Source of the DNA: Antedon mediterranea
Lineage: Eukaryota > Animalia > Echinodermata
Assembly (NCBI RefSeq): GCF_964355755.1
Contig: NC_092673.1
Span: 34,903,648-34,967,647 of the forward strand
Length of the DNA stretch: 64,000 bases
Reading direction: 5' to 3'
Each line of letters opens with the position of its first letter. Position 1 is the stretch's first letter. The translations under genes were made by a program, and so were the position numbers. Below, piece after piece: positions 4,475 through 59,681 of the stretch. The notes below the pieces were generated by a model. It had not been told where the DNA came from. It searched no databases and saw nothing but the letters and a program-made list of their open reading frames with translations.

Positions 4475-4951
4475 CATGTACTATATTGCAGTACTATATT
4501 GCATGTACTATATTGCGTGTACTATATTGCAGTACTATATTGCATGTACTATATTGCATGTACTATATTGCATGTACTATATTGCATGTACTATATTGCA
4601 TGTACTATATTGCATGTACTATATTGCATGTACTATATTGCATGTACTATATTGCATGTACTATACTGCATTTACTATATTGCATTTACTATATTGCATG
4701 TACTATACTGCATTTACTATATTGCATGTACTATATTGCATGTACTATATTGCATGTACTATATTGCATGTACTATACTGCATTTACTATATTGCATTTA
4801 CTATATTGCATGTACTATATTGCATTTACTATATTGCATTTACTATATTGCATGTACTATATTGCATTTACTATATTGCATGTACTATATTGCATTTACT
4901 ATATTGCATTTACTATATTGCATATATTATATTGCATGTACCATATTGCGT
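4475..4951. repeat. 15-bp intronic minisatellite (catgtactatattgc-type), ~32 copies
   Basis: Direct tandem repeats ending ~40 bp before the acceptor AG at 4988-4989. Confidence 0.95.
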
Positions 4952-4989
4952 GTTAATAAACTTATAATGGTGTTGTCTTTACATTTTAG

Positions 4990-5526
4990 AAATCTCACTG
5001 GAAGAATTTAATGAACTGTTGACTGATACAGCAAATTGGTATGACCGACTTGGATACCTCAAAGCGTTAAAACTTTTATACAAAGACAATTTGACAAAAT
5101 CTAATGTAGCGGTGTCTAAAGCTGAAAGTGTCTGGGATTTACTACAGGATTTAACAGGCTCTGGAAGTTTAAGTCCATCAAATCTTACTATCATATACGA
5201 CACAATAAAGATAACCAAGCAATTTGGCTTTAAGTCAAACATTAAAAATCAACCTCCAGAAGATATTAAGAACCATGTAATATCAATGTTGACATCTTAC
5301 AGACAGAAGCTTTTTAAGCTGGGAGTAGAACTTAAAGAGGATGAAGTATCAAAAATTGATTTTCTTTTTAACAATCCATTATTAAAGAAGTATCCAGATA
5401 GTTGGAGTTTGATTAAGGATTTTGAAGACCGAAAGATCATTGATAGCGATTATGCAAGGATGGAGGATTTTCTTAATGTTTTAGAAAGAAATGGAATGAC
5501 AAAGGCTGGGAAGATTTTTTTTGATG
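4990..5526 (+). CDS. NLR copy 1, tandem-DED exon 1 (537 nt, phase 1-1)
   Basis: ttttag|AA ATC acceptor and GAT G|gttagt donor. The protein ISLEEFNELL...SVWDLLQDL and TSYRQKLFKLGVELKEDEVSKIDFL...LIKDFEDRKII resembles caspase-8/FLIP tandem DEDs. The exon is conserved in the paralog at 55369. Confidence 0.85.
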
Positions 5527-6677: not shown

Positions 6678-7211
6678 AAATGTCAGTCGAGGATTTTAAT
6701 CAACTGTTGATTGATACAGCAGAATGGTATGATCGACTTGGATACCTCAAACCCTTAAAACTATTATATAAAGACCATCTGACAAAATCTAACACAGGTA
6801 TAACTAGAGCTGAATGTGTCAAGGATCTACTACAGGATTTAACAGCCTCTGGGAAATTGAGTTTATCAAATCTTACTCTTCTGTATGACACAGTAAAAAT
6901 AACTAAGCAATTTGGCTTTAAGTCAACAGTTAAAAATCAACCTCCAGAGGACATTGAGAAACATGTTGTATGGATGCTGACATCTTCCAGACAAAAGATT
7001 TTTAAGTTAGGATTAGAACTGAAAAAGGATGAAGTATACACATTAGATTCTTTATATAACAATCCACCAAAGAAATATCAAAACAGCTGGAGTTTGATTG
7101 AAGATTTTGAAGACAGAGAAATCATTGATGAGGATTTTTAAAAAATGGACAAATTTCTTACAATTTTGGAAATAAATGGAATGACAGGAGCAAAGAAGAT
7201 ATTCATTGATG
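6678..7211 (+). CDS. NLR copy 1, tandem-DED exon 2 (534 nt, phase 1-1) with in-frame TAA at 7139-7141
   Basis: tatag|AA ATG acceptor and G|gttagt donor. The frame continues after the stop (*KMDKFLTILEINGMTGAKKIFID) and matches paralog DFKKMDTFL. Confidence 0.82.
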
Positions 7212-7608: not shown

Positions 7609-7683
7609 ATGTGGAATCAAAGGAAAGAGTAGAGAAGCCTTCTTCTTTAAACTGGGAACAACAACTATCACTAACAGATAAAG
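7609..7683 (+). CDS. NLR copy 1, 75-nt linker exon (DVESKERVEKPSSLNWEQQLSLTDK)
   Basis: ctcag| and G|gtata boundaries, phase 1-1, open frame, conserved at 58019-58093. Confidence 0.8.
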
Positions 7684-8017: not shown

Positions 8018-8548
8018 ACATTTTTTATGCCTTTTACCTTAATGATAAGTTCCAGACTTTAAAATCTGAACTTAGCAAAATCTATAAGGGTCAGTTTTAC
8101 AAATGGTTGAGATTCTGCCTGTGTGATAAGATATGTTTGGAAGATATTACCCGTGATGATGGTACAGGAATTTTGTTATTCAGTGAACTTCAACGAACTG
8201 GTAAAATCACACCTTATAAATTTACTGTTCTGTTGGACATTGCAATTTTAACCGGTTTCAGGGAAGCTGAAGATCTGGTAATTCAGTATATGGTAGATAA
8301 CAATGTTGAACCTGTTGATGACGAAAGGCTGTCATTGTTTCGACAACAACTATTCCGGGCTTTAAGAGAAATTGGAAAAAATGAGTTGAAGAAAGTTAAT
8401 CATAATTATGATGTACTGAAAGAATTTAAATCGACAAATATTTGGGATGCTGTGCTAATACTAGAGAGAAAAAAACTCTTAGAAACACCTGCACAAATAG
8501 ATAAGTTTGCACATCTTCTTGGAAAATCCGCTCCACAGAGACTACTCG
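8018..8548 (+). CDS. NLR copy 1, tandem-DED exon 3 (531 nt, phase 1-1)
   Basis: tttgcag| and CTC G|gtatgt boundaries; FQTLKSELS...LLFSELQRTGKITP and LSLFRQQLFRALREIGKNELKKV...IWDAVLILERKKLL are DED-like; paralog at 58875. Confidence 0.82.
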
Positions 8549-9383: not shown

Positions 9384-9425
9384 AATCTACCAAAGAAATA
9401 ATGAAACTATCAACAATAGATAAAG
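9384..9425 (+). CDS. NLR copy 1, 42-nt linker exon (ESTKEIMKLSTIDK)
   Basis: cacag| and G|gtaat boundaries, phase 1-1, conserved at 59640-59681. Confidence 0.75.
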
Positions 9426-9823
9426 GTAATTGCGTTTTGTAAATATTTTTATTTGAATTTACTACATACCAATATCTAGAAAATACTCTTAATTGATTGT
9501 GTATTTTAGATAGCATAGAGTTGATTTTAAATAACTACAGAAATGTAAACTTTTTCCTACACAAGAGTTAGATAAACATAATTTTATAACATTGAGCTTT
9601 GAGTTAACAGACAAATATCTGAATTTATCATTGATTGTATATTTGAACTCTTATTAAATTGATGTTGAACATAGTAAAATTATGACTAAACTAAAACTAG
9701 AGATAAAGCAAGGTGCTAAAAAACCACTACAATTAAATTAAAACTACAAATGTATTTATTTATGACTTTACATGTCATAAAGATAAACCTTCTTTATTTA
9801 TTAGATGTTGATTTTATTTACAG

Positions 9824-12800
9824 CTGCCAAGACATATCTGAAAGAAGAGCAACAAAAATCATATCAAGATATGAACTTAATGGGAACAGCAATTTTTAAT
9901 GAAGAACACAAAGTTGACATTGCAGACGTATTCACAGATCTTAAGTTACTTCAATCTACAAAAAAAAAACAGGTTGACCAAGCAACAAGACGGCAAGATG
10001 CTAAACCAACAAATTTAGTACATGTGTTGAAGATGATAAAATATAGAAGTTCATGTAAAGTTCTAATAACTGGTAAAGGGGGGATGGGAAAGACAACTGT
10101 TCTCAGATACATTACATATAACTGGGCTAATGATAAGGATGATACATTTTCTGATCAAGTATTGTTTCTGTTAAATATCAGAGATTTAGAGCCAGGAAAG
10201 ACAATCATAGATACTATTGTAGATGACATTGACCTTGAAAAAATTCCTACATCTGTAAAAGAAAAATCCAAAAAAGATCCTAAGGAATTGATCAAAACAT
10301 TCATGATAGAAAATGAGAATGAAATAGTTATACTATTAGATGGATTAGATGAGTTAAAGCAAGGTGATAAAAAACCATTACAATTATTGAAATTTAAATC
10401 GGACTATAAATATACCACAATAATAACATCACGGCCTGAAAATATTACGACATTTGTTGAAAACTGTGATGTGCATGTTGAAGTCAATGGATTTAGTGAA
10501 GAAAGTATGAAGCTTTATATTCAGAAATATTTCAAAGAAAATCCTAAATTAGGGAAAATGTTAATCAAAAAATTAAAGCTTATTTCACACAAGAATTATG
10601 ATTCAGAGGATTCAAATTCAACAGATTTTGATCCAGAAATGTCAGATTTAGAACATTCAAGTTTTGAGAATTCAAGTTCAGTAGACAAATATCCAGATTC
10701 ATTCAGAAATATAGATATAATTGAACTATGTTCATCTCCTTTGTTATTACTTTTGATTTGTAGCATTTGGGAAGAATCAGAAAAGCTTCCAAATGATTTG
10801 TCAGATCTTTTCAAAGAACTAATTTGTTGCACTTTAAATCAATATTTATCCAAAATAAATGGTGAGGGGAAGAAATCTGCAATTTCACAGTTTGAACAAA
10901 TTCAAGGTGATTATAAAACTGCTATCCTAGCGTTAGGCCAATGTATTTATCAACGACTAAAAACAAATGAACTGATAATTGACAGGTCTCAGTTCACAAA
11001 TATGGTTAAAAATGAATCAATAGAAGACTTGGCACTCAAAATTGGATTTGTTTACAAAAAGCCACCACTTAATAAAAGAGATCAAAAAGAGATATATGCT
11101 CCCCCGCATAAGCTAGTTTCAGAGGCATTAGCAGGGTTTTACCTTGCTGATAAGTGTCAGTCAGGTGATTTGAAGGAGGAGGAGTGTGAAATGATACTAT
11201 CTAATGGATATCTACATATGACAATCATATTTACAATAGGATTCCTAGGTGCTGATGCTGGTAGATTAATGAAACATTGGCTGAAGGTAAAAGCTTCAAA
11301 CTTGTATTCACTAACAAAGTATTTCAAATATGTAAAGGCAGAACATGAACCTTCTGTAGTAAAAGAATTGGAAGCAAAAATATCAGGTGATAAAGTACTT
11401 AAAGAAACATGTTTAGAAATGACCGAGTCATTTAGATATGCTCTAGGTTTTATTAACCCCTTGGATGAGCAAATAGCAACATCACAAATGCAATTAGTAC
11501 AACTTATGAGCAAATGTTATGGTTTTTCTAATGAACAGTGGATTTCAGTGATTATGGAGAAAAGACCCACTAAACCAACTACAGACTTTTGTGCTATGGT
11601 AGTTCATTTCTTAATATTCATGTATTCACCAATAAGTGATAATGAAGAAGTATTTAAATTAGATTTGTTTGTGAAAGACAATGAGATTGATACTATTTCA
11701 ACTATAATGGACAAATTTCAATTTCAATATGGCTTTGAAAATATTTCATTTGATAAATCACAGAGTCCTAATTTATTGGTACATTGTTTGAATTATTCAC
11801 CTAACTTAAAAAATATCTATTTTAAACCTGACAGTCTAACCATTATTACATTAAACCACGTTCTTGAAAATATCTTTCCACTTGATCTAAAGCTTCATAT
11901 TGAAAAGGATGATTTAAGTAATATTGATGCTGTTTCACTTTCTAAGTTGGTGAGTCTAGTTGAGAAGTTTACATTTAGTAACTGTAACTTATCAGTTGAT
12001 CACCTAAATGTTCTTGTAAATTTCTGTTATGAATGTGATAGGATATTGACATGGAAGAAGTTGGATTTAAGTCGAATTAACCTATGTTCAATTGAAGGAT
12101 CAAAATTAGCTTGTTTATTAAAATTCTCTCCACAACTAGAACATCTTGATATGAGTGAGTGTAATCTCTCAGGTAGTATTATAAAAGATTTATTGAATGA
12201 ATGTGATAAAAACAATGTGGTATTGAAACCTAAATTGCTTGATCTTAAGGAAAACAATTTGTCAGGTATTGATGTTAATATACTATTTAGGTTGGTTGAT
12301 CTAATTGATATGGATGATGACACTTTTGAATGGTGTGATTATAGCCTGTCACTTAATAACATTAGATGTCTTGCAGATGCCTGTCACGAACAAGGTAGGA
12401 TATTGACATGGAAAAAGTTGAATTTAAGTTGGATTAACCTATCTTCAATGGAAGGATCAAAATTAGCTTGTTTATTAAAATTCTCTCCACAATTACAACA
12501 TCTTGATATGAGAAATTGCCATATTTCAGGTAGTATTATAAAAGATTTATTGAATGAATGTGATAAAAACAATGTGGTATTGAAACCTAAATTGCTTGAT
12601 CTTGAGGAAAACAATTTGTCAGGTATTGATGGTAGTACACTATTTAGGTTGGTGGATTCAAATTGTATGAATTATTCTACTTTTAAATGGAAAGATTATA
12701 GCATGTCAGTTGATAACCTAAGAGGTCTTGCAGATGCCTGTTATGAACATGGTAGGATATTGACATGGGAACAGTTGAATTTAAGTAGGATTAACTTAGC

Positions 12801-15800
12801 TTCAATTGAAGTATCAACATTAGCTTGTTTATTAAAATTCTCTCCAGAATTAAAAACTCTTGTTATGCGTAATTGCCATCTTTCAGGTTGTATTATAAAA
12901 GATTTACTGAATGAATGTGATGAAAACAAAGTGGTATTGAAACCTGACATGCTATATCTAGAGGGAAATAATCTTTCAAAAATTGATGGTGTTACACTAT
13001 TTAGGTTGGTAGATCTAATTGATATGGATAATGACACTTTCAAATTTTCTGATTATAGCCTGTCAGTTGACCACCTGAAAAGTCTTATAGATGTCTGTTG
13101 TGAACATGGTAATATATTGATATGGGAAGAGTTGATTTTAAGTGGGCTCAACCTATCTTCAATTGAAGGATCAAAATTAGCTAGTTTAATTAAATTCTCT
13201 CCACAACTTAAATGTCTTAATATGAGAAATTGCCATCTCTCAGGTAGTATTATAAAAGATTTATTGAATGAATGTGATAAAAACAATGTGGTATTGAAAC
13301 CTAAATTGCTTGATCTTAAGGAAAACAATTTGTCAGGTATTGATGGTAGTACACTATTTAGGTTGGTAGATTCAAATTGTATGAATTATTCTACTTTTAA
13401 ATGGAAAGATTATAGCCTGTCAATAGATAACCTAAGAGGTCTTGCAGATGCCTGTTATGAACATGATAGGATATTGACATGGAAGAAGTTGGATTTAAGT
13501 CGAATTAACCTATGTTCAATTGAAGGATCAAAATTAGCTTGTTTATTAAAATTCTCTCCACAACTAGAACATCTTGATATGAGTGAGTGTAATCTCTCAG
13601 GTAGTATTATAAAAGATTTATTGAATGAATGTGATAAAAACAATGTGATATTAAAGCGAGGTATGGTTGATGTAACGAAAAACAATCTTTCAGATATTGA
13701 TGTTGATACACTATATAAGTTGGTGGATTCAGATTGTACGCATTATTTAATGTTTAAATTTTGTGATCATAGCCTGTCAGTTGACCACCTGAAAAGTCTT
13801 ATAGATGTATGTTGTGAACATGGTAGGATATTGATATGGGAAGAGTTGAGTTTAAGTAAGATTAACTTAGCTTCAATTGAAGGATCAAAATTAGCTTGCT
13901 TATTAAAATTCTCTCCACAATTACAAAATCTTAATATGAGAAATTGCCATATTTCAGGTAGTATTCTAAAAGATTTATTGAATGAATGTGATAAAAACAA
14001 TGTGGTATTGAAACCTAAATTGCTTGATCTTGAGGAAAACAATTTGTCAGGTATTGATGGTAGTACACTATTTAGGTTAGTGGATTCAAATTGTATGAAT
14101 TATTCTACTTTTAAATGGCAAGATTGTAGCCTGTCAGTTGATAACCTAAGAGGTCTTGCAGATGCCTGTTATAAACATGGTAGGATATTGACATGGGAAC
14201 AGTTGAATTTAAGGTGGATTAACCTAGCTTCCATTAAAGGATCACAATTAGCTTGTTTATTAAGATTCTCTCCACAATTACAAATTCTTGATATGAGAAA
14301 TTGCCATATTTCAGGTAGTATTATAAAAGATTTATTGAATGAATGTGATAAAAACAATGTGGTATTGAAACGTTATATGCTTGATCTAGAGGGAAACAAT
14401 CTTTCAGATATTGATGGTGTTACACTATTTAAGTTGGTAGATTCAAATTGTATGAATTATTCTACTTTTGAATGGAAAGATTATAGCCTGTCAGTTGATA
14501 ACCTAAGAGGTCTTGCAGATGCCTGTTATGAACATGGTAGGATATTGACATGGGAACAGTTGAATTTAAGTAGGATTAACTTAGCTTCAATTGAAGTATC
14601 AACATTAGCTTGTTTATTAAAATTCTCTCCAGAATTAAAAACTCTTGTTATGAGTAATTGCCATCTTTCAGGTTGTATTATAAAAGATTTACTGAATGAA
14701 TGTGATGAAAACAAAGTGGTATTGAAACCTGACATGCTATATCTAGAGGGAAATAATCTTTCAAAAATTGATGGTGTTACACTATTTAGGTTGGTAGATC
14801 TAATTGATATGGATAATGACACTTTCAAATTTTCTGATTATAGCCTGTCAGTTGACCACCTGAAAAGTCTTATAGATGTCTGTTGTGAACATGGTAAGAT
14901 ATTGATATGGGAAGAGTTGATTTTAAGTGGGCTCAACCTATCTTCAATTGAAGGATCAAAATTAGCTAGTTTAATTAAATTCTCTCCACAACTTAAATGT
15001 CTTAATATGAGAAATTGCCATCTCTCAGGTAGTATTATAAAAGATTTATTGAATGAATGTGATAAAAACAATGTGGTATTGAAACCTAAATTGCTTGATC
15101 TTAAGGAAAACAATTTGTCAGGTATTGATGGTAGTACACTATTTAGGTTGGTAGATTCAAATTGTATGAATTATTCTACTTTTGAATGGAAAGATTATAG
15201 CCTGTCAATAGATAACCTAAGAGGTCTTGCAGATGCCTGTTATGAACATGATAGGATATTGACATGGGAACAGTTGAATTTAAGGTGGATTAACCTATCT
15301 TCAATGGAAGGATCAAAATTAGCTTGTTTATTAAAATTCTCTCCACAATTACAAAATCTTGATATGAGAAATTGCCATATTTCAGATAGTATTATAAAAG
15401 ATTTATTGAATGAATGTGATAAAAACAATGTGGTATTGAAACCTAAAATGCTTGATCTAAGGTTAAACAATTTGTCAGGTATTGATGTTAATACACTATT
15501 TAGGTTGGTTGATTTAATTGATATGGATGATGACACTTTTGAATGGTGTGATTATAGCCTATCAGTTAATAACATTAGATGTCTTGCAGATGCCTGTCAT
15601 GAACATTGTAAGATATTGACATGGAAAAAGTTGAATTTAAGGTGGATTAACCTATCTTCAATGGAAGGATCAAAATTAGCTTGTTTATTAAAGTTCTCTC
15701 CACAACTTAAACGTCTTAATATAAGTAATTGCCATCTTTCAGGTGGTAATGTTAAAGACTTATTGAATGAATGTGATAAAATCAATGTGGTATTGAAAAC

Positions 15801-18498
15801 TGGCATGTTTGATCTAACGGCAAACAATTTATCAGGTATTGATGTTAGTACACTATATAGGTTGGTAGATTTAGATTGTACGTTTTATTTAATGTTTAAA
15901 TTTTTTGACCATAGCCTGTCAGTTGACCACCTGAAAAGTCTTATAGATGTCTGTTGTGAACATGGTAAGATATTGATATGGGAAGAGTTGAGTTTAAGTG
16001 GGCTCAACCTATCTTCAATTGAAGGATCAAAATTAGCTAGTTTAATTAAATTCTCTCCACAACTTAAATGTCTTAATATGAGAAATTGCCATCTCTCAGG
16101 TAGTATTATAAAAGATTTATTGAATGAATGTGATAAAAACAATGTGGTTTTGAAACAAGGCAATCTTGATCTGACGGAAAACAATTTGTCGTGTATTGAT
16201 GGTTTAACACTATTTAGGCTGGTGGACCTCATTGATACGAATGATGACTATTTTAAATGGAATGATTATAGCCTATTAGGTAATAACCTAAGAGGTCTTA
16301 TAGATGCCTGTTATGAACATGGTAGGATATTGACATGGAAAAAGTTGAATTTAAGTGGGATTAACTTAGCTTCAATTGAAGGATCAAAATTAGCTTGTTT
16401 ATTAAAATTCTCTCCACAACTACAACGTCTTGATATGAGTAATTGCCATCTCTCAGGTAGTATTATAAAAGATTTATTGAATGAATGTGATAAAAACAAT
16501 TTTGTATTGAAACCTGGCATGCTGGATCTAGAGGGAAATAATCTTTCAAAAATTGATGGTTTTACACTGTTTAGGTTGATTGATCTAATTGATATGGATG
16601 ATGACACTTTTAAATGGTGTGATTATAGCTTGTCAGTTAATAACCTAAGAGGTCTTGCAGATGCCTGTTATGAACATGGTGGGATATTGACATGGAAAAG
16701 GTTGAATTTACGGGAGATTAATCTAGCTTCAATTGAAGGATCAAAATTAGCTTGTTTAATCAAATTCTCTCCACAATTAAAACGTCTTGATATGAGAACT
16801 TGCCATCTGTCAGGTAGTATTATGAAAGATTTATTTAATGAATGTGATACAAACAATGTGGTATTGAAGCCTAGCATGCTGGATCTAGATGGGAACAATC
16901 TTTCAGATATTGATAGTGTTTCACTTTTCAGGTTGGTAGATTGTATGAATTATGAAATGTTTAAATGGTATGACTATAGCCTGTCATTTCATGACCAAAG
17001 AGGTCTTATAGATGCCTGTTATGAACATGGTAGGATATTGACATGGGAACAGTTAAATTTAAGAGGGATTAACCTAGCTTCCATTGAAGTATCAACATTA
17101 GCTTGTTTATTAAAATTCTCTCCAGAATTAAAAACTCTTGATATGAGTAATTGCCATCTTTCAGGTTGTATTATAAAAGATTTACTGAATGAATGTGATG
17201 AAAAAAAAGTGGTATTGAAACCTGACATGCTATATCTAGAGGGAAATAATCTTTCAAAAATTGATGGTGTTACACTATTTAGGTTGGTAGATCTAATTGA
17301 TATGGATAATGACACTTTCACATTTTCTGATTATAGCCTGTCAGTTGATAACCTAAGAGATCTTATAGATGCCTGTTATGAACATGGTAGGATATTCACT
17401 TGGGAAAAATTGAATTTAAGCAGCCTTAACTTAGCTTCCATTGAATTATCTAAACTAGCCTTATTATTACAATTCTCACCACAACTAATGTGTCTTGATA
17501 TGAGTAATTGTCATATCTCAGGTAATATTATTAATGATTTACTCAATCAATGTGATAAAAACAATGTGGTAATAAAACCTGAAATGCTGAATCTAGAAGA
17601 AAACAATCTGTCAAAAATAGATGGTGTTTCACTTTTTAAGTTGGTGCATTGTATGACTTATTCCACGTTTGAATGGAGGCGTGATTATAGCCTGTCGGTT
17701 GATAACCTACAAGAACTTGTAGATATCTGTAAGGTTAATGATAGTAAGTTGACATGGAATTATTTAGATTTAAATGGACTTAACCTTGTAGCATCCACTT
17801 TAGCTGGTTTAATACAATTCTCTCCATTTCTGGAACATCTCAGTTTGGAAAATTGCAATCGTTCGGGTGGAATGATGATGTCTGTATTGAATGAATGTGA
17901 AGGAAATGGAATAGTATTGAAGAAAGGTATGCTGAACCTGATGGGCAATGACCTTTCAGATATCACAGATGAAACATCAGTTGCTAAATTAGAATGGATC
18001 AGTAGTAGTCATAATTTGTTTTCTAATCCAGTCTCACGTTTAGACAACTTAGAAAATGAAAACTCAAATTTAAGTAACTTAGGAAATGAAAATTCTAATT
18101 TAGACAACCTGGGGAATGAAAACTCAGATTTAGACAACTTAGGAAATAGCAACTCAAATTTAAACAACAATGAAAACTCTGATTTAGACAACTTAGGATA
18201 TGAAAACTCAGATTTAGACAATTTAGAAAATGAAAACTCAGATTTAGTAAATACAGAAATCTCTGATGATCAAAAATCAGATTATACAAACACAGATCTA
18301 GAAAACACTGACATTTCTGATGACCAAGACAATTCAGATCTAGAAAACACTGACATCTGTGATGACCAAGACAATTCAGATCCAGGAATTGCAAACAAAT
18401 CTAAAGTGGCTCTAATAATGTATTTTTTCAATTACTTTTTACTTTTTATTTTCCTTATGTATATTTTCAATTTTTTATTTGGCCTACATTTATTTTAG
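9824..18498 (+). CDS. NLR copy 1, giant exon: NACHT NTPase, LRR super-repeat array, acidic spacer, hydrophobic tail
   Basis: tttacag|CT phase-1 acceptor; uninterrupted ~2890-codon frame. Walker A GKGGMGKT, Walker B ILLDGLDE, sensor TSRP, EVNGFS, PLLLLLICSIW, winged-helix HKLVSEALAGFYL, then LxxLxLxxN/C repeats. Confidence 0.95.
12030..17965 (+). repeat. Coding tandem repeat: 17 x 357 bp (119 aa, four LRRs per unit)
   Basis: FSP codons at 12124, 12481, 12838, 13195, 13552, 13909, 14266, 14623, 14980, 15337, 15694, 16051, 16408, 16765, 17116, 17473 and 17818. Confidence 0.95.
18040..18380 (+). repeat. Coding low-complexity repeats (ENSDLDNLGN 30 bp; DLENTDISDDQDNS 42 bp)
   Basis: Repeated gaaaactcagatttagacaacttagga and gatctagaaaacactgacat units. 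Confidence 0.85.
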
Positions 18499-29606: not shown

Positions 29607-29789
29607 TTAGAGAGGTAAAGAGTCAGTGCAGTGTCGTGTGACTTCACAAGCGATATTGCGTGATGGCTATGTGAGGGGAATCCCCTTTCCGTTCAGAAAA
29701 AAATTTAAAAATTATGGCCGCAATGGTCGTACAATAACTTAAATATCGTAAATGTGCGTGTGTGTAAGCCTTTTTGTTATTTTTAATGT

Positions 29790-32700
29790 AGAAAACAACA
29801 CATATACATCAACCATTACATTGATGACGATGAATTTAAATTTGCTTTATTCAGTCTTAATAATACCCTTGAATATAATAGAATGTTAAATCTGAAATTT
29901 AATCCATTTGTCTTTAATGATGTGATAAATAACTCTAATAATTTAATTGATTATGACATACCACATTCATGTTCTTATACCTTTGATCATAACATCTCAG
30001 CTACATGTGAAAAGGACTTTTCCATCTTACATATCAATCCACGAAGTTTCAATAAAAACGTTGATCTGATTAGCACGTTCCTCACTAGTTTAAGGCATAC
30101 CTTTTCGATTCTAGCTTTATCAGAAACCTGGTTTAAAGAAGATGGTTCCAATTTAATCCACATACTGTAGATAACTATAACTTGGTTAATACACCACGAA
30201 GTGGTGGTGTTGCTATCTATGTTCATAATACAATCTCATTTCGAATCCGGAATGATTTAAAATTAATTGACAAACCGTCTGAGCACTTTGATCATTCTGA
30301 ATCTATCTTTATCGAAATAACAGTTCCCGGTAGGAAAAACATTGTCGTTGGCAATATCTATCGTGCTCATCGTACCAATATTGAAACATTTTTTTATGAT
30401 CTTACAAATTGTCTCACAAAAATTAATACTGAAGAAAAACAATGTTATATATCCGGTGATTTTAATCTTGACCTTCTACATTCTAATGACAATCACATTA
30501 TTAATGAGTTCCTCTCTATTTTTTATAACCATAATATGTTTCCTCTTATCGATAGACCCACCAGAATTACCCCTTCAACAGCTTCCTTAATTGATAACAT
30601 TTTCACTAACGTTTTTACTCATTATATAAAATTGGGTGTTGTTATTGCCGATGTTTCTGATCATTATCCTGTTTACCAAATCACTAAATCAACTCCAATT
30701 AGCAATGCAAATACCTCGAATAGAATTCAACACTTTTTAGAAAATTTAAGCTTGGTTGATTGGAGTTGTATTACTGATCTTGATTCTTCTGACCATGCAT
30801 ATAATGTTTTCATCCATAAATTCACAGAGGTCTACAATGTACATTTTCCCATCTCTAAACATTCCAACAACAATTCCCGGCGTTGTTGTATTCCTCAAAA
30901 ACCTTGGATTACTTCGGCGATCCTAAAATCAATAACTCGAAAAGATAAATTATACAAAATGTATGCAAGTAACCCTACTGAATCCAACAAAACGTCTTAT
31001 GTTAATTATCGTAATAAACTTACTTCTTTAATCAGGATTTCTAAACAGCAGTATTATGCTGAAAAGCTTGAGGAAACAAAATTTAATTCAAAACAGACTT
31101 GGAATGTTCTCAATAACATTATGGGTAGACAAAACAATAAACACATATCATCATTTTTTTAAATAAATGATATACATATATCTGATTTTCAAATTATTGC
31201 TGATAACTTTAATAAATACTTTGTCAACATTGGTCCTGAATACCTACATAAAATTCCTCAATCTGATATTACTTTTAATTATTTTATAAATAACATAAAA
31301 TCACCCGTTAGCTCTCTGTTTTTTTTACCAACTGATAAAGATGAAGTACTCACAATATTCAGAAATCTGAAATCTGGTGCTAGCAGCGGTTTCGATGACA
31401 TTAAACCAGATATTATTAAATCTGTTGGGGAATTAATAGCATCTCCACTTGTTCATATTTTTAATTTATCACTAGCTACCGGTATTGTCCCGGAGAAGCT
31501 GAAAATTGCCAAGATAATTCCCGTCTTTAAACATGGTGAGACTGATAAATTTAGCAATTATAGGCCCATCTCGGTACTGCCCGTTTTCTCCAAAGTTTTA
31601 GAACGCATAATACATAAAAGACTCTATAATTATTTTTCTCGATTTAATTTATTGCAAGAGAACCAATTTGGTTTCCGCCCAAATATGTCTACTGAAATGG
31701 CTGTTCTACAAGCATATGATAAAATAATCTCTGAATTAGATAAGAAAAAGCATGTTCTTGGGATATTTCTGGACCTTTCAAAGGCCTTTGACATCGTCAA
31801 TCACGACACTCTCCTGTCTAAACTACAGCATTATGGTATACGTGGTGTTGCCTTTGATTGGTTCAGAAGTTACCTGACGGATAGAAAGCAATATATCTCT
31901 TTTAATTATCATAGTTCTTCTTCTTTAAACATTTGTTGTGGTGTTCCACAGGGCTCAATTTTAGGCCCGCTACTCTTTATTATTTACATTAATGATTTAG
32001 CAAACATCTGTAAACATTCCAATCTTATTTTATATGCAGATGACACTAACCTTTTAATTTCAGATAATGTTTTAAACCGTCTAGTTGATAATGTTAATTC
32101 CGATCTCTCGACTATCTCGAGTTGGTTTAAAGCAAATAAGTTATCGCTTAATGCTAATAAAACTAATTATATGATTTTTAAGAACAGATATAGTAACCGT
32201 GTTTACAATGACCTTAACATTTTCATTGATAATAATAACATCTCTCGTGTAACTAGTTGTAAATTTCTTGGTGTAATAATGGACGAATGCTTAACCTGGA
32301 ATCAACATACAATCCATATTGCAAACTTAGTTTCAAAATATTCTGGTATTCTTTTTAGGCTAAAACCAATTTTACATGTCAATGTTCTATCATCCTTATA
32401 CAAGACTCTAGTCCTTCCTCATATTCAATACTGCAGCTTGATTTGGGCTGACCACAATAACTGCGTTTATGCACAAATTCTCAATTCCTTGAGCATTCAC
32501 CACCATTTGCTAGTCTTAACAACTTAACTGTGTATGATATTCATAAGTTATCAAAAGGTGTTTTCATGTACAAATTTAAGAATAATTTATTACCAGCTAA
32601 CTTTTCTAATTATTTTGTTAAAGTAAACTCAGTTCATAATTATGGCATCAGGTCCTTTGATACTTATCGTCCTTATAATTTTGTTACCGATATGGGTAGA

Positions 32701-35700
32701 AACACTATCAGAGGACATGGTCCAATTTTATGGAACAATATTGATGCTTCTATTCGCATTTCATAATAAATAATAATAAATAACATTTATAAAGCGCAAG
32801 AGACAAAGGTTTCAAAGCGCTGTGTTTTCCAAGATCAGTGCAAGTAGTAGCGTGCGATTATGCTTCTCTGAAGAGATGAGTTTTGAGTTTAGTTTTAAAT
32901 GTGAAAACAGATTTTGATGAGCGTATTTCGAGTGGTAGAGTGTTCCAGAGTTTTGGGGCTGCGACAGCGAAAGCACGATCACCGTAAAACCGAGTTCTGG
33001 AACGGGGTCCAGGTTTTAGAAGAAGTCTGCTGGATGAACGAAGCGAAGAGTTGGTTGACGGAGTAATGATGTCACATATGTAGGCTGGAGCACATCCGTT
33101 GATGGCCTTATATGTCAGCAACAGGATTTTAAAACGAATGCGCTGATCAACAGGCAACCAGTGTAAGTCACGTAAAACGGGAGAAATATGTTCATGTCGT
33201 TTAGTGCCAGTGATAAGTCTTGCGGCGGAATTTTGGATTCGTTGAAGAGGAGACAGATAAGAAGTTGGTAGGCCGTACAGAAGCGAGTTATTACAGTCCA
33301 GACGAGATGAAACAAAAGCATGAACAAGACGTTCAGTTGATGTTTTGTCAAGGTACTTACGAATCTGGCCGATCTGGTAAATTCCAAAGGAAGCACCACG
33401 GCAAACATTACGAATGTGTTCTTTTAAACCGAGGCTGTTGTCTAGTTGGACGCCTAGATTTCTGGCTGAGCTGGAGGTAGAGACACTAGTATCTCCGATA
33501 TGGACCAAAGGAAATGATGATGCCTCACGGAACTTTGAATGAAAATGGATCATTTCAGTCTTGGAGTCGTTGAGCATGAGTTTATTTTGAATGGCCCATG
33601 AGCGAACATCTGCAATGCATGATTCAAGGCTGTTAACAGATTCAGAGTGATGTGTAGGTTTCATGATTAAATATAGTTGAGTGTCATCTGCATAGATCAT
33701 ATGACGAACTTCTGGGTGGGAATCAATGATGTTGCTGAGTGGTCCAGTGTATAAGATGAAATCGAGTGGACCTTTTACGGATCCCTGTGGTACACCCCAG
33801 GGTAGAGCGAACTCATCAGACATCGAATCACCCACAATGATTGCTTGTCTACGATTCTCAAAATATGAAAAAAAACCATTTCAATGCGGTTCCGCTTATG
33901 CCGTATCTTTTATGAAGACGTTGAAATAATAAATCATGATTGATAGTGTCAAATGCTGCGGAGTAGTCGAGTAGAATAAGTACCGCTTCATTACCTTTGT
34001 CTTTGACAGTTATTAGTGGAGTGTTTATGGAGTTAAGTTTCTTGCAAATTTTCAGAATCTTTTCATTAAAGAAACAGCCAAACTGGTTTGCGAGATCCAT
34101 TGAAGATGTGTGTTTTGGCAGAACAGGAGAAGAATCGACCGAGTACAGTTTACTTATGATGCGGAAAAGGTTCTTGTCATCCGCATTAGCGATTTCATTG
34201 CGATGATAATTGCATTTTGCTAGATCTAGCATATCTTTATATGCTTTGCATTCCAACTTGTACCTCTGTTTGTCGATATCCAAACCAGATTTCAACATTC
34301 TGCGTTCTGATCTCCGTTTGACGCACTTCGCTTCACGGAGTTCATTCGTGTACCATGGTGCCCGTGGTCTAATGGTGACCAGTTTAGTTGTTAACGGAGC
34401 ATGTTGGTCAAGGATGTACTGCAATACATTATTGTATTGGTCAGCGAGATCGGAGACATTATCTTCCGGTGCGCAGACGAGCGGGGAATTCATTATATCT
34501 TCCACAAAACAATTTAGATCAATGTTACGAAGTTTGCGGTAAGAGATTGTCTGCGTTGGTTGTTTAGGATGTGATAAATCCACAAAGCTGATGACAGCCA
34601 TATGGTCGGATGGTAGTCCTTGTTTGACAGTGGTTTGTTTTATTATGTTGTCGTTTTTTCGAGAGATTAGAAGGTCCAGTGTGTGCCCGCTAACGTGAGT
34701 GGGGCCTTGGACGTGTTGATGAAGACAACTCGTGTAAAGCAGTTCATCAAATCGCTTGGTGTTGTTGTCCAAGAGGTCATCTGTGTGAATATTGAAATCA
34801 CCAACTATCAGAAGGTTTTTGGTGCAAGAGACTGATTCAAGAAGTGATGAGAATTCAGTGATGAACAAGTCAAAGGTAAGTTTGTTTTTGGTCGATGGTG
34901 GTGGTCTGTAAATTGAAATCAAGTTAATTACAGATGAATTGGAAGTGATCTTGATATCCATATGTTCGAAAGACCGGAAACTTGTTGAAACATTTGGTGT
35001 TATTTGGAGTCCACGGTGCGAAATGATGCATATTCCACCTCCGCGTCCACCTGTAAGGCGTGGCTCATGTGACACCACGAAATTTGGGAGGGTGTTACTC
35101 ACGTCCGCAATAAAGTGGTTGTCACTTGCATCACCTTTCAACCAACTTTCGGTAATTACTAAAATGTCTAATTCAACATCCAAAATAAAATCACAAACGT
35201 GAACAGTTTTATTTCTTATAGAACGCGCATTCCACAGTCCAAAACAGATGGAACTCGAACTACGAGATTGTTCAGTATCCACGGAAACAGGTCTGCGAGG
35301 TTGAGAGATGTGTTCAGTGGCGGCAGAGATAAGCTTGCTTCGTCGTCGACCAGCCTTCTTTCCTCTATGTGTTTTTCGAGTTGAGAATGCTCGGCATGTG
35401 GTAAAGGCATTGATATTCAAACGATTTATAGTGTCAATTTCTGATGGAGTCAACGATGACTTTAAGTTTCCTGATAATCTGAGAAGTTGATCACGATCGT
35501 AGTAAATCATAGACGCAATAGATGAACTGACAGGTTGAATTAAAGTCAATGAACACCCGTTATGATAAGACGATTCGGTTCTGTGAAGTAAGCCGACTAC
35601 TACAATCCTAGGCCTACCGTAGTTGACAAATCCGGCAAAGAATGTTGAATGAACCGTGGATACGGCTGACCGCGAAGGCTGACTGCACAGGAATGTGAGT

Positions 35701-36257
35701 AGACAGGCAAACGAAACTGGCCTAGGAAAACGGAACATTAGTTTCGCTAGTAGACCAACGATGTTATCTTCACAAATACATACAACGGTCAGTAATAACC
35801 AGGAAAAGTTCGATGTGGCATTAAACACACAGATTTCAGTATACAGAAACTGTAATTTTACAGAAACTTGGAGAACAGATCAGACTGGCCGCTTGTAAGG
35901 CGCACACGTCTTTATAGGCTATGATCACTGCTGGTCATCATCTGTCAAAGTATTTAAAAAGTTGTATAAAAATAATTTGCTCTTAACTTATCAATGAGTG
36001 TTACAAATATGTTTACATGTACATTGTTCTTTTGCTTTTTTGGTTTTATCGCACTATCTTTGAGTTCAGATGCCAACATGTTTAGCTAGTATTGTCTCGT
36101 CCTGTGCTTCAATTATGTTTGTATCATGTATTAATTATTTTGTTAAGGTGGCCAAATACTGTACGAGCTTTGCTCTTTTTTGGTCATCCTTCCATTTTTG
36201 CATATATTCATTACACTTGTTTATATTGGAAAATAAAAACTGAAACTGAAACTGAAA
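29790..36257 (+). mobile_element. Degenerate CR1/L2-clade LINE (APE + RT), interrupted at ~32765-35934
   Basis: ALSETW, GDFN, SDH (APE); DLSKAFD, GVPQGSILGP, YADD (RT); stops and frameshifts near 30170 and 31160; C-terminus resumes at 35935 (SSSVKVFKKLYKNNLL); aataaa and (CTGAAA)n tail. Confidence 0.9.
32765..35934 (-). mobile_element. L2-like LINE (APE + RT, internal RT deletion, frameshift) nested in the opposite orientation
   Basis: WNARS, ITESWL, GDFNIH, SDH; DYSAAFD, GVPQGS, YADD; ends FKTKLKTHLF; (TTA)n tail; short tcat duplication at 32761 and 35935. Confidence 0.9.
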
Positions 36258-39224: not shown

Positions 39225-40103
39225 TTCAATTCAATTCAATTTCTTTTTATTTCGGAAATATCATCCATATTAATAAACTCATAAACAGAAAACGAAAAAT
39301 CTAAACTTAAGTACAGTATATAGAATGCTTCTCCATCTACAATACATTTTGGAGTTATGGAGCATATGTTTGCAAACACAAGCAACAAGGATGTTACCAC
39401 TATTCAACATACGTTGCATGAAACCATAGTTGGATTTTCGCATGTACTCATTAAAGGAAGGGACACCATGTTCAATAAACATTGCACTGGCACTACTACT
39501 TCTAGAGACATTAAGTATACGGCGCAGAGCATTATTGTAGCATACATTAAGAGATCTAATATTCTTCATACGATAGTTACACCAAAGGGCTGCACAATAC
39601 ATATTAAATTTTAATACAGTAAGATCTAAAGAGACAACATTTAACATTGGTAGAGCATTTCATAAATTTACGATTGAGTGAGTTGCTTCTAATACACAAA
39701 GACCTGTACTGACTTTGAATGTCGGCCTCATCACTGCAATCACACATAAGAATATGACCAAGATAGGTACCTTTCTCAACATAAGCAAGTTTTGTACCAA
39801 AAAGTTTAGTAATAGAATTACCTTCAAGTTTGCAAGTACGAGGACAGAAACGCATACAAAAAGATTTCTTATCATTAAATAAAACATCATTCTCTTGCGA
39901 AAACTCTTCACAAACATGTACCAATAGCTGGAGACCAGCAACTGAAGGGGCAAGTAGAACAAGATCATCCGCATAACTAAGATGATTCAAAATAATGTTT
40001 CTACATTGGCAACCCTGACACAAACCACTTATTCTACAATTTAGAGTACTAATATATATGTTATAAAGGAGAGGGGACATAACCCCACCCTGTCTAACTC
40101 CCT
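39225..40103 (-). mobile_element. 5'-truncated LINE (RT C-terminal half)
   Basis: GVRQGGVMSPLLYNIY, LSYADDLVLL; (TTGAA)n tail; interrupts ggaggta|tacc, which is intact at ~46470. Confidence 0.88.
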
Positions 40104-55324: not shown

Positions 55325-55368
55325 TTTATAAAATTATAATGGTATTGTCTTATTTGTTTACATTTTAG

Positions 55369-55905
55369 AAATCTCAGTGGAAGCATTTAATGAACTGTTG
55401 ACTGATACAGCAAATTGGTATGACCGACTTGGATACCTCAAAGCGTTGAAACTTTTATACAAAGACCATTTGAAAAAATCTAATGTAGCAGTGTCTAATG
55501 CTAAAAGTGTCTGGGATCTACTACAGGATTTAACAGGCTCTGGAAGTTTAAGTCCATCAAATCTTACTATCATATACGACACAATAAAGATAACCAAGCA
55601 ATTTGGCTTTAAATCAAACGTTAAGAATCAACCTCCAGAAGATATTAAGAACCATGTAGTATCAATGTTGACATCTTACAGACAGAAGCTTTTTCAGCTG
55701 GGATTAGAACTTAAAAAGGATGAAGTATCAAAACTTGATTTTCGATTTAACAATCCATTATTAAAGAACTATCCAGATAGCTGGAGTTTGATTAAGGATT
55801 TTGAAGATAGAAAGATCATTGATAGCGATTATGCAAGGATGGAGGAGTTTCTTAATGTTTTAGAAAGAAATAGAATGACAAAGGCTGGGAACATTTTCCT
55901 TGATG
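55369..55905 (+). CDS. NLR copy 2, tandem-DED exon 1
   Basis: ttttag|AA ... G|gttagt; 537 nt; highly similar to 4990-5526. Confidence 0.85.
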
Positions 55906-56558
55906 GTTAGTTTCTTTGTTTCTTTTTTTTGTATATTATATAGCTGTAGTGCCTTGATATTTTAAATCATGCAGCCAATAGTTATATAGTTCTTGCACCT
56001 TCTAATCCCATGATGTGTTAAGAATGGAAAATTTTTTAAATCAATTTCTTGGATTAGTAATCTTAGTTATGTATAAGTTGCAGTCAAAGGTTATGAATAC
56101 AAACTAAATTTATTGTAAACTAGTTAAAAAATAATACAGGATGATCAATTGAGTGTACTAAACATTTATATATATATATATATATATATATTATCCCCCT
56201 GAAAAAATAATCTAAAGAAAAATAAATTATTTTTATCTTACTAAACAAGGCTATCAAACAACTCGGCTTGCCAAGATAGGCTATCATAACAGACTTTAAT
56301 TTGTTGTTTGGCTTAACGAATTCATGCACACCATACATTGTGTTATCCTAGTGAAATTTTGTGGAAGCCAGTTGACCACTGGCAAATCAATAGTAAATCA
56401 TAATAGTATTGCGTCCAAACCATAATGTTTGATCCAGCAATTTAAGTCTGGTTCTTTACAAGTTTTGTTTAACTCTTTACTGTGGATGAATTAATCCACT
56501 GACTATTATTTGTATGTTTTAAAATTAAAATAGTGTTTTACTCATTTTCCCATAATAG

Positions 56559-57089
56559 AAATGTCAGTCGAGGATTATAATCAACTGTTGATTGATACAG
56601 CAGAATGGTATGATCGACTTGGATACCTCAAACCCTTGAAATTATTATATAAAGACCATCTGACAAAATCTAACACCGGTATAACTAGAGCTGAAAGTGT
56701 CAAGGATCTACTACAGGATTTAACAGCCTCTGGGAAATTGAGTTCATCAAATCTAACTCTTCTGTATGACACAGTAAAAATAACTAAGCAATTTGGCTTT
56801 AAGTCAACAGTTAAAAATCAGCCTCCAGAAGATATTGAGAAACATGGATGGATGCTGACACCATACAGACAAAAGATTTTTAAGTTAGGATTAGAACTTA
56901 AAGAAGATGAAGTATACACATTAGATTCTTTATACAACAATCCACCAAAGAAATATCAAGACAGCTGGAGTTTGATTGAAGATTTTGAAGACAGAGAGAT
57001 CATTGATAAGGATTTTAAAAAAATGGACACATTTCTTACATATTTGGACAGAAATGGAATGACAGGAGCTACGAGGATATTCATTGATG
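56559..57089 (+). CDS. NLR copy 2, tandem-DED exon 2 (intact)
   Basis: aatag|AA ATG ... G|gttagt; 531 nt, open frame. Confidence 0.85.
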
Positions 57090-58018
57090 GTTAGTTTATT
57101 TGTTTATTGAATATTAATTAGTGTCTTTTAGTGTAATAGGACAATGATTTGAGTGTTTTGTGTTTCAAATTAAATATTTTAGGCAGATTTATACTTTTCC
57201 TTAGTTTTATTATGATTTAGCCTTAAATGTAAAATACATTCATCTTAGGATATTTAAAAGTAATATTGCACTGTTTTATATTTGAACTATTGTAATTAAA
57301 ATATTGTAGTAAAGTGGGTGAAATTTGTTGTTTTTAATTATGTATAGGCCTACTTTACTACAGTAGTTTGTATAATGAAAGCAGTACCTTTGTACAGTAT
57401 GTTACTGTTCTTATTAACTAACTGAGTCTTAAATAAAATTAGTTTTTACCTACAACCTATTCATTTCATATAAACATATTTAAATAAATTTTTTTCAGAA
57501 TAAATACCAGTAGAAAGTTTGTTATTGATAAATATTATATGTTGTTGTATTTAAATAATTTTGAACCACTTTTTGTCAGACAGACAATTACTATTAATTA
57601 TTAGGTTAATTATATCACACAGTGAATCATTTTTAATTAATAGTAAAATTTCTTTCTTTTCCTTATCAGCAAACTAAATCAATTTATTCAAATGGCAATA
57701 GAGCCAATGAATAAAAGGCGAAACAAACATTAAATCATGCAATTATATAATGGACAGCATAAAATTGGTGTCATTATGGCCAATTAGCATATTGCATAAT
57801 AATTAGGTTATTAATTATTATAATTCCACAACAAGAATATCATTAAAATTTATCTAAAGAATGCTAACAATAGCAAAATGTTTTAGGTGGTGGGCAGCCA
57901 CATGATACCCCCACGGGGGCCCTTCTTTACAAGATACTAGATATATTTCTTGTTACTTTTATAAACATAAATCATACAAACTGTGACGTATTATTGTATT
58001 GATATTTTTTTTACTTAG

Positions 58019-58093
58019 ATGTGGAATCAAATGAAAGAGTAATGAAGCCTTCTTCTTTAAACTTGGAACAACAACTATCACCAACAGATAAAG
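58019..58093 (+). CDS. NLR copy 2, 75-nt linker exon
   Basis: cttag|AT GTG GAA ... AAA G|gtatag. Confidence 0.8.
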
Positions 58094-58874
58094 GTATAGT
58101 AACAATAACAACAGCGGAATGTTTTCTCTCACGTGTACCGTGAAGTCACATGGTCTCTCTGTACTGATCATTAATACACATGAATTTATAGCAATGAATT
58201 TGTCCGAATTCTGTTAAATAAATAAACTTTTTATTTTTTATAAACATTTAATGACATGTTTTATTGATATTTCCAATGGTGATATATAAAATAAATTACT
58301 AAAAAACGTAATTATTAATTATTAACGACAAATGGCGTAGTTAATAGAAATGTCGACAGAGGATGCAAATTGTTTACATCGTTCGTGGCTGGCTAAAATT
58401 GATCATTTTTGGCGATGTTTTAGACCCTATATTTAAAAAACTACAGGTTTTCATAATTCTTTCTTTATTGCAATATTAATACAAAATACTAACAGATAAT
58501 ATTTAATTTGGTTGAAAAATAACAACTTTTAATTTTGCATCATTATCCCTATATGGACAACATGAACTATTATGCAGTCCTAGAACTTATTTAATCACCA
58601 CCTTGTATAGGTAATTACATTCATTTTGTCGGAAAATTTGCGATTCCGCCCGAAAAAGCACCAATACCCCCCCCCCCCCCATCCTGCCGTGCATACGCCA
58701 CTGAATAGTTGTGTTAGTTACGTCTTCAGATACCATCTACATTCATCCTCAATGGTTCAAATTACATTCTCAAAACAATGTTGATGAAGATCAGTTTGAT
58801 ATCAAGTTGAAACACACATTATTTTTTTTTATTTATACATATTTTGTAAGATTCTTTTATTTTCATTTTTGCAG

Positions 58875-59414
58875 ACAAAACTGAAGCTGATGTTGATGCC
58901 TTGTACCTCAAGGATAAGTTCCAAACTTTAAAATCTGAACTTAGCAATATCTATGAGGGTCAGTTTTACAAGTGGTTAAGATTCTGCCTGTTTGATAAGA
59001 TATGTGTGGAAGATTTTACCCGTGATGACGGTACAGGATTTTTTTTATTTAACGAACTTCAACGAACTGGTAAAATCACACCTTATAAATTTACTGTTCT
59101 GTTGGATATTGCAATTTTAACCGGTTTCAGGGAAGCTGAAGATCTGGTAATTCAGTATATGGTAGATGACAATGTTGAACCTAATGATGACGAAAGGTTG
59201 TCATTGTTTCGAAAACAACTTTTCCGGGCTTTAAGAGAAATTGGACAAAATGAGTTGAAGAAGGTTAATCATAATTATGATGTACTGATAAAATTAGAAT
59301 TGACAAATATTTGGGATGCTGTGCTAATACTAGAGAGGGAAAAACTCCTAAACACACCTGCACAAATAGATAAGTTTGCACATCTTCTTGGAAAATCCGC
59401 ACAGAGACTACTCG
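58875..59414 (+). CDS. NLR copy 2, tandem-DED exon 3
   Basis: ttgcag|AC ... CTC G|gtatgt; 540 nt; paralog of 8018-8548. Confidence 0.82.
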
Positions 59415-59639
59415 GTATGTATTCTTCTTTTTTTTCTGTGTCAGTGCTTCGATATGAAACAGCTAGAGTTAAAAAGAAAACAATCATGGATGAAAAATGT
59501 TCACAAACTGGGTCATATTTCTCAAAATTTATTAAAAATTTCCCTTCCCTTATTCCTATTATTTCAGAATAAAGACTAGTCCAAGCACACTGTTCGATGT
59601 GATGTTCTAAAGATAATATTTTTTTTTATTTAGATGCAG

Positions 59640-59681
59640 AATCGACTGAAAGAGTAATGAAGTTATCACCAATAGATAAAG
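59640..59681 (+). CDS. NLR copy 2, 42-nt linker exon (alternative in-frame acceptor gives a start at 59634)
   Basis: tagatgcag|AA TCG ... AAA G|gtaat. Confidence 0.72.

Follow-up and report, generated by a model that had tools for sequence, protein, structure and literature searches.

A mosaic array of four-LRR units in a predicted crinoid DED-NACHT-LRR receptor gene, probably a germline-shuffled sensor

The window analysed here, a stretch of 64,000 nucleotides from the crinoid Antedon mediterranea, carries on its forward strand a gene whose giant last coding exon (9824..18498; 2,891 codons, a single open frame) encodes a NACHT domain, helical domains, an array of leucine-rich repeats (LRRs) and a tail. 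The open frame itself spans 9805-18498 (2,897 aa), contains a tandem array with a period of 357 bp, and is maintained over the exon at about 31% GC. Five further exons were predicted upstream on the same strand, all of phase 1-1. Exon A (4990..5526, 537 bp), a tandem DED region, is supported by AG/GT splice sites, an open frame and a Pfam DED match (E 5e-9), and shows 87% identity to residues 23-201 of the predicted protein P0002; the DED exons of the gene show 87-93% identity to Antedon mediterranea. Exon B (6678..7211, 534 bp), also a DED region, is interrupted by an in-frame TAA (7139-7141); the tandem paralog described below has a lysine codon at this place. A 75-bp linker exon (7609..7683), kept in the paralog, is followed by exon C (8018..8548, 531 bp), which matches the protein P0038 (phmmer E 5e-60) and is present in other family members; a Pfam search with exon C gave no match. 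A 42-bp linker exon (9384..9425) precedes the giant exon. The predicted set begins at exon A, the gene's first exon not being in view. This copy may have been disabled by the stop codon upstream of the array, and the allele as assembled may be null if exon B, whose phase permits skipping, is not left out. The tandem paralog (55369..59681, forward strand) shares with this gene all five upstream exons and the 14-bp intron minisatellite, and its NACHT exon lies outside the window, which is rich in minisatellites.

We compared the window with assembled contigs from four sequencing runs. Contigs of one run (X1), which may be the window's own source, match several flanking and NACHT stretches identically, and two others (X5 and X6) each provided one 547-bp contig identical to 9403-9949. 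None of the 15 joints shown, out of 203, linked predicted exons in these contigs. The summed contig depth of unit 1 of the array was about 9-16 times that of NACHT, a value that is no copy number.

The NACHT domain (10060..10539, forward strand; Pfam PF05729, E 6e-18) contains what we take to be Walker A (10072-10095), Walker B (10330-10353) and sensor-1 motifs, all intact, with what is presumably the winged-helix histidine motif downstream of them. Measured against the definition of metazoan NLRs (PMC3879445), the NACHT match scores 65.6 bits for a cut-off of 26.7, the C-terminal LRRs are recognised by LRR_1 above its cut-off, in agreement with AlphaFold and Foldseek, and on the N-terminal death-fold side DED exons in compatible phases lie upstream of the NACHT exon, exon B with its stop. 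DED exons and NACHT are united in a single predicted protein in P0002. On these features, the array forms the C-terminal portion of a predicted DED-NACHT-LRR NOD-like receptor gene in a crinoid gene cluster. The acidic, low-complexity tail (18039..18498, forward strand) has 30-bp and 42-bp repeats and ends in a hydrophobic stretch of 59% T. A C-terminal membrane anchor was considered doubtful on account of this composition and of the missing tail in P0002, and was not adopted.

The array comprises sixteen full units (12043..17745, forward strand) of 357 bp each, except units 14 (351 bp) and 16 (354 bp); 14 of the 16 thus encode 119 aa, one 117 and one 118. A diverged half unit with the C and D LRRs (11892..12042; nhmmer E 2e-13) lies ahead of them, and a diverged, partial 17th unit with the terminal LRRs (17746..17964), kept in P0002, follows on the same strand. 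The 17 units of 119 aa in one exon proposed in the preliminary description are therefore better counted as sixteen full and two partial end units, still within one exon. The strand motif variants A-D quoted there were all found in the sequence; the scaffold strings called nearly invariant are exact in only 7 and 10 of the 16 units, although column entropy along the scaffold is low. Mean identity between units is 83% at the nucleotide and 71% at the amino-acid level, and divergence reaches 29%, whereas units 3 and 8 differ by 2 nt and units 4 and 9 by 1 nt.

In place of a poor single-sequence model (pLDDT 61), we used an alignment-based AlphaFold model (pLDDT 91), in which each unit consists of four ribonuclease-inhibitor-like LRRs with strands at unit positions 6-8, 34-36, 66-67 and 94-96. 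The 119-aa unit is predicted to fold as four alpha/beta LRRs of the ribonuclease-inhibitor type (28+31+28+32 aa) and to comprise two halves, each of about 60 aa and related to the other. Among the top-ranked Foldseek hits are ribonuclease inhibitor, NOD2, NLRP3 and NLRP9. The global fit to these structures is poor (TM about 0.45, rmsd 8-9 Å over 12 LRRs), suggesting a curvature different from that of ribonuclease-inhibitor-type LRRs, and some 69 LRRs would need a superhelical shape instead of a flat horseshoe.

The units are mosaics of one another. A 779-bp tract from the end of unit 2 to the start of unit 5 (12704..13482) recurs downstream on the same strand (14489..15267) with three mismatches, at an offset of 1,785 bp or exactly five units, and exact shared tracts between units generally sit at whole-unit offsets. 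We considered, and rejected, that the three mismatches were templated from other units, since only one fits and the other two occur solely or almost solely in unit 3. Units 1 and 5, noted previously as alike and then different, share an exact 184-bp tract (12036-12219 and 13464-13647) beyond which 56 nt differ, and the strand B common to units 4, 9 and 12 was likewise recovered, with units 4 and 12 identical over 156 bp. The PHI statistic was 0.39 against 0.565, a value reached in none of 5,000 permutations, and site incompatibility climbs with distance from 0.24 to about 0.6. The corresponding z was -14.1 overall and -10.9 on the codons outside the variable strand positions, with a minimum of -2.2 in 40 simulations free of recombination; the signal persists after the removal of units 8 and 9. 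In a quick tree, the nearest unit lies in the same gene for all 16 units. Unequal crossover or gene conversion within the exon, as suggested earlier, is strongly supported by PHI, the simulations and the exact tracts. Exchange of A, B, C and D sub-cassettes with fixed borders was rejected: the 27 switches are scattered over the unit.

For the analysis of variable sites, we defined 20 strand-region x positions per unit, leaving 99 other sites; their exposure on the binding face follows from the LRR register and is presumed. Entropy is 1.49 bits at x sites and 0.61 at the remaining sites outside the core, a difference matched in none of 100,000 permutations. Variation is thus concentrated at x positions, as described previously, but columns 75, 79, 87-92, 109, 115 and 119 vary too. 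Omega is 1.27 at x sites and 0.40 elsewhere (p 7e-15), but the x sites taken together do not exceed 1 significantly (p 0.15, per-LRR trees), and their value drops to 0.93-1.32 once the strand zones have their own synonymous rate. Under a uniform synonymous rate, M2a was better than M1a (p 3e-4 and 5e-5), and the omega 4 class held 5 of the 20 x sites and 1 of the 99 others; with zone synonymous rates, the p values were 0.06 (F3x4) and 0.009 (F61), and residual recombination inflates such site tests. A few sites keep posteriors of 0.8-0.99 for omega about 3 with zone rates, and about 58% of sites are assigned to the omega=1 class. These results suggest four sites at omega 3-4, and positive selection at strand-region sites is moderately supported. 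Both the selection and the recombination results describe one haplotype.

Crinoid DED-NACHT-LRR homologs bear the same 119-aa unit, which occurs, among the proteins named, in crinoid proteins only. Crinoid relatives contain 2-14 four-LRR units or, where the unit is a two-LRR block of 57-60 aa, as many as 46, with the same variation pattern. The x-site excess was significant (p<0.01) in five of seven homolog arrays, including the independently expanded arrays of Anneissia, and protein PHI gave p<0.05 in all six testable arrays, four of them marginally (0.03-0.045). Within-gene clustering was weak in P0012 (2 of 12 units, quick tree). A three-unit query found no near-length homolog among 7,998 candidates, and an Atlas search returned generic LRR leads only.

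The alternative that best survives these data is neutral turnover, in which an LRR exon expanded and was homogenised like any tandem repeat, the strand face being merely unconstrained, perhaps in a young pseudogene. An x-site omega not different from 1 under the local synonymous rate, the large omega=1 class, the in-frame stop of exon B and a window full of minisatellites are all in line with this possibility. We regard it as rather unlikely, given the few sites that retain high posteriors for omega about 3, the long exon open at low GC and the x-site excess in the independently expanded Anneissia arrays, although relaxed constraint predicts the last likewise. Far less probable is a somatic generator, in which the array would be rearranged in immune cells, by a mechanism like that of the VLRs or by mitotic unequal exchange, to give cell-to-cell diversity. 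The abundant near-identical tracts could support mitotic exchange, and the available text of PMC13449251 and PMC12222747 presents somatic rearrangement of fungal high-internal-conservation (HIC) NLRs as reported or suspected. Against it, the germline gene is complete, nhmmer on the 64-kb window found 18 unit-like segments, all contiguous inside the open reading frame, the switch points keep to no fixed borders, and the divergence between units needs a long germline history; the VLR-cassette and somatic-generator ideas of the preliminary description thus gained no support in the window. A mis-joining of two haplotypes, which would have created the 779-bp duplication and inflated the unit count, could account for the 99.6% identity of the tract copies and for the two mismatches untemplated by other units, but is hardly credible with a frame open across every junction, three different units between the copies, a recombination signal independent of units 8 and 9, and 9-14 units in annotated relatives.

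We therefore favour, with reasonable confidence, the reading that the array is the C-terminal, probably sensor, region of a DED-NACHT-LRR gene and that unequal crossover and gene conversion in the germline produced its 16 mosaic units. Where units of about 83% identity misalign, exchange between them would add, remove and overwrite segments at arbitrary points, while purifying selection (omega about 0.4-0.5) would hold the scaffold. Diversity of the strand face would reflect relaxed constraint together with diversifying selection at a few sites, probably columns 11, 34, 64 and 98. The predicted protein would sense a ligand on its concave face and oligomerise through NACHT; by analogy with other NLRs, signalling would pass through the DEDs to a caspase-8/FADD-type pathway. 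A broader scheme, in which dozens of crinoid DED-NACHT genes reshuffle single-exon LRR arrays quickly enough for alleles to differ among individuals and even among the immune cells of one animal, with neither RAG nor AID, seems to us highly improbable; if true, it would amount to a somatically varied repertoire of intracellular receptors in an invertebrate.

Shuffling of NLR sensor repeats has been characterised mainly in fungi, and the animal literature consulted notes only that HIC NLRs occur. The array gene and its crinoid family provide a concrete animal case with LRRs, which bears on the diversification of intracellular receptors in long-lived invertebrates; an invariant or neutral array would be an ordinary expanded LRR tail. 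We found no paper on crinoid NLRs or such arrays, though supplementary NLR tables could list crinoid proteins. The available text of PMC13449251 describes a survey that discarded repeat units over 100, and a four-LRR unit of 119 aa would have been missed by it. Because the array lies in one exon that can be amplified in a single piece, long reads offer a direct test of its variation among alleles and among cells.

Vertebrate NLRP/NOD receptors have ribonuclease-inhibitor-type LRRs in alternating 28/29-aa pairs and share the alpha/beta LRR fold predicted for the crinoid array, from which they are distinguished by its approximately 69 LRRs in one exon with NACHT. Lamprey VLRs, which are extracellular, start from an incomplete germline gene that is completed somatically with flanking cassettes; LRR modules, variable concave residues and new combinations are common to both systems, but the scattered switch points and the lack of donor cassettes in the window indicate that the array is not VLR-like. 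In plant NLRs (RPP5, flax L), LRRs diversify via intragenic exchange with variable xxLxLxx faces, a sensor shuffling shared with the crinoid gene, but plant NLRs have NB-ARC and far lower identity between repeats. Repeat shuffling in plants is mentioned in the available text of PMC13449251. Within echinoderms, DEATH/DED-NACHT-LRR NLRs number 203 in Strongylocentrotus purpuratus and 53 in Chiridota heheva (PMC8913654), with the same architecture and lineage-specific expansion, and a sea urchin LRR NLR with HIC is attributed to Hibino 2006 in the available text of PMC12222747.

The closest likeness is to fungal HIC NLRs (Podospora HET-E/HET-D HNWD, ANK/TPR), which combine NACHT with shuffled near-identical sensor repeats. 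The HET-E analogy is closer than first claimed, since a NACHT NTPase, itself preceded by DED exons, carries the array. The NACHT domain, the DED exons, the in-frame stop, the tandem paralog and the wider crinoid family were all absent from the preliminary description. According to the available text of PMC12222747 and PMC4986451, fungal HIC repeats are alike within a gene, cluster gene-wise, are reshuffled and have few hypervariable codons per repeat. The HIC threshold of PMC4986451, more than 85% repeat identity over at least 100 aa, is reached by units 3 and 8 and by units 4 and 9, and the array shows both concerted evolution within the gene and repeat shuffling. The sensor repeats are LRRs, in contrast to the WD40, ANK and TPR repeats of fungi, in whose NLRs PMC4986451 reports no LRRs; the repeat exchanged measures 119 aa (four LRRs) in the crinoid gene and 24-42 aa in fungi (PMC12222747), and the predicted N terminus is DED, unlike in fungal HIC NLRs. 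HNWD membership was rejected, HET and WD40 being replaced by DED and LRR, so the gene resembles HET-E and is not a member. The array gene is a crinoid LRR variant of the known HIC NLRs, and its array is likely a germline-shuffled sensor like the fungal ones.

The window contains an open frame of 2,897 codons (9805-18498), inside which lies a tandem array with a period of 357 bp. Splitting the array gave 16 full units (12043-17745), 14 of 119 aa, one of 117 aa, and one of 118 aa, instead of the 17 full units counted in the preliminary description; a diverged partial unit follows directly, and nhmmer located a half unit immediately ahead of the array. No other unit-like DNA was found by nhmmer elsewhere in the 64 kb. 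The units share 71-99.7% DNA identity (mean 83%). The motif variants and the segments common to several units that had been described are both present in the sequence, but the strings called nearly invariant are exact in only 7 and 10 of the 16 units.

The same frame encodes a NACHT domain (residues 86-245) with intact Walker A, Walker B, and sensor-1 motifs. Upstream of the NACHT exon, we predicted two DED exons, a third domain exon, and two linkers, a set that begins downstream of the gene's first exon, which is outside the window. The DED exons share 87-93% identity with P0002, a homolog from Antedon mediterranea. The predicted DED exon B contains an in-frame TAA (7139-7141), at which the paralog described below has a lysine codon, and the 8.7-kb exon downstream of this stop is open throughout. 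Therefore, the assembled allele is null, exon B is skipped, or the sequence is in error; because all five upstream exons are of phase 1-1 with AG/GT ends, skipping would preserve the frame. An acidic, serine-rich insertion of ~40 aa (about 10590-10710) in the helical domain after NACHT does not occur in P0002 or another homolog, P0003, and in the homolog P0007 an acidic insertion rich in Asp and Tyr occupies a comparable place. At 18039-18498, the frame extends beyond the end of P0002 with acidic repeats of 10 aa and 14 aa and a hydrophobic, T-rich end.

Recombination between the units, proposed in the preliminary description, is strongly supported. PHI was 0.389 versus 0.565 (0 of 5,000 permutations) for 14 units, excluding the near-duplicate units 8 and 9, and all 16 units gave the same outcome. 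Incompatibility grew from 0.24 to ~0.6 as sites lay farther apart, and identical runs were longer than expected in 21 of 120 unit pairs (p up to 0.002, uncorrected). The observed z of -14.1 compares with a minimum of -2.2 in 40 simulations without recombination but with site-specific rates; the signal persisted on non-x codons (z -10.9) and was weak on the 12 informative sites of amino-acid-invariant codons (p 0.0125). The longest tracts recur after a whole number of units: one of 779 bp with 3 mismatches after five, tracts of 238 bp after three and after seven, and an exact tract of 184 bp after four. A copying model placed 27 switches, which are dispersed across the unit without any fixed border. 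In a quick tree, every one of the 16 units was nearest to another unit of its own gene, as were 9/9 in P0010 and 4/4 in P0004; this did not hold for P0012 (2/12) or P0002 (0/3). Protein PHI gave p<0.05 in all six testable four-LRR arrays of relatives (two strong, four marginal; P0157 was untestable) and in two of three two-LRR arrays. It is thus well supported that the LRR array of this crinoid NLR is recombining.

An AlphaFold model of three units, based on a 26-sequence alignment, had a pLDDT of 91 and a pTM of 0.83, with four short strands (columns 6-8, 34-36, 66-67, and 94-96) and four helices per unit. Ribonuclease inhibitors and NLR LRRs were among the best Foldseek matches (E about 2e-7, but TM about 0.45), and the modelled repeats belong to the same class, probably with a different curvature. 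Entropy was 1.49 bits at the 20 x positions, which are positions 2, 3, 5, 7, and 8 of each LRR consensus motif and were chosen after the entropy table had been seen, versus 0.61 at other non-core sites, in line with the earlier claim that these strand residues vary. The register of LRR D was placed by eye and agreed afterwards with the predicted strand. From general knowledge of LRRs, the x positions are presumably exposed on the concave face.

Pairwise dN at x sites was 1.8 times the global dS (bootstrap 1.2-2.7) and 1.2 times the local dS (0.7-2.3), versus 0.5 at non-x sites. Custom codon-model code, run with one tree per LRR on 14 units, put omega at 1.27 for x sites and at 0.40 for the others (p 7e-15), the excess over 1 not being significant (p 0.15). 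M2a was better than M1a (p 3e-4 with F3x4, 5e-5 with F61), and columns 11, 34, 64, and 98 had posteriors >0.9 for an omega of about 4. Across 12043-17745, synonymous divergence seemed higher around strands than helices (rate ratio 1.3-1.9; p 0.026 with F3x4, 0.32 with F61), as could arise if strand variants resist homogenisation, and a separate strand-zone rate was therefore modelled. The x-site omega then became 0.93-1.32 and the M2a test gave p 0.06 and 0.009, with column 11 still at a posterior of 0.97-0.99. On these figures, diversifying selection at a small number of sites is probable rather than established. The excess at x sites reached p<0.01 in five of seven arrays of relatives, P0012 (0.06) and P0156 (0.13) missing it.

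The likeliest mechanism is misaligned exchange in the germline between the 357-bp units, which would continually duplicate, delete, and overwrite segments, while purifying selection would keep the scaffold and diversity would be retained at the strand face, so that recombination would yield new sensor surfaces. Signalling, as expected from NLR biology, would proceed via NACHT oligomerisation and the DEDs. Neutral turnover with relaxed constraint, under which the strand-face diversity would need no selection, is an unlikely alternative. Somatic reshuffling of the units and partial mis-assembly both seem very improbable.

A second copy of all five upstream exons begins at ~55.4 kb (55369-59681), with its NACHT exon outside the window; the locus is therefore a tandem NLR cluster. 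A 14-bp minisatellite of ~34 copies immediately precedes exon A in both paralogs (4475-4953 and 54847-55325), and the differing consensus units suggest separate homogenisation since the duplication. At 29787-35879, 39279-40119, and, after the paralog, 60000-64000, within the NLR genes and in the spaces separating them, are several LINE-like endonuclease/reverse-transcriptase fragments, identified by eye except for a Pfam endonuclease match at 62567-63823, and large satellites of 62, 55, 44, and 132 bp.

With the repeat as query, 7 and 8 proteins were recovered (11 distinct), every one belonging to Antedon mediterranea or Anneissia japonica. The NACHT part as query matched 53 clusters at E up to 1e-30, and unit-like repeats are present in 41 of P0001-P0053. 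Thirty of the 31 named relatives are crinoid, the other being a lancelet protein without a unit match. The relatives, all predicted proteins, carry either four-LRR units of ~117-130 aa in 2-14 copies (P0010 and P0154, 14; P0012, 12) or as many as 46 two-LRR units, each of 57-60 aa; the sixteen units here are not unique, but at the top of the observed range. The two halves of the 119-aa unit align weakly to each other, so two units of the shorter kind were likely its origin. P0046, a 3,951-aa NLR of Antedon mediterranea in which higher-order repetition is visible among ~46 two-LRR units of 57 aa, is a stronger candidate for repeat-number polymorphism. P0004 has an OTU-like domain (PF02338, precomputed) and P0025 ~5 tandem DED blocks, architectures that point to shuffling of N-terminal exons in the family.

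The gene belongs to a crinoid NLR family without a description in the literature searched: full-text searches of the main text of papers outside subscription journals yielded none of crinoid NLRs or a four-LRR super-repeat, and passages of PMC11508797 do not mention crinoids. Passages on NLR definition (PMC3879445), on sponge clade C, in which one exon holds NACHT and LRRs (PMC3879445), and on echinoderm death/DED NLRs (PMC8913654) provide the background. PMC13449251 reports NLRs with high internal conservation (HIC) from fungi as well as from animals, plants, and bacteria; passages of PMC4986451 concern such NLRs in fungi, and a passage of PMC12222747 cites Hibino 2006 for a sea urchin NLR that combines LRRs and HIC. 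Of the analogies drawn in the preliminary description, the one with lamprey VLRs does not hold for this array. The one with HET-E stands in that the gene would work likewise, although it is not a member of the HNWD family, and the pattern of the array matches that of HIC NLRs.
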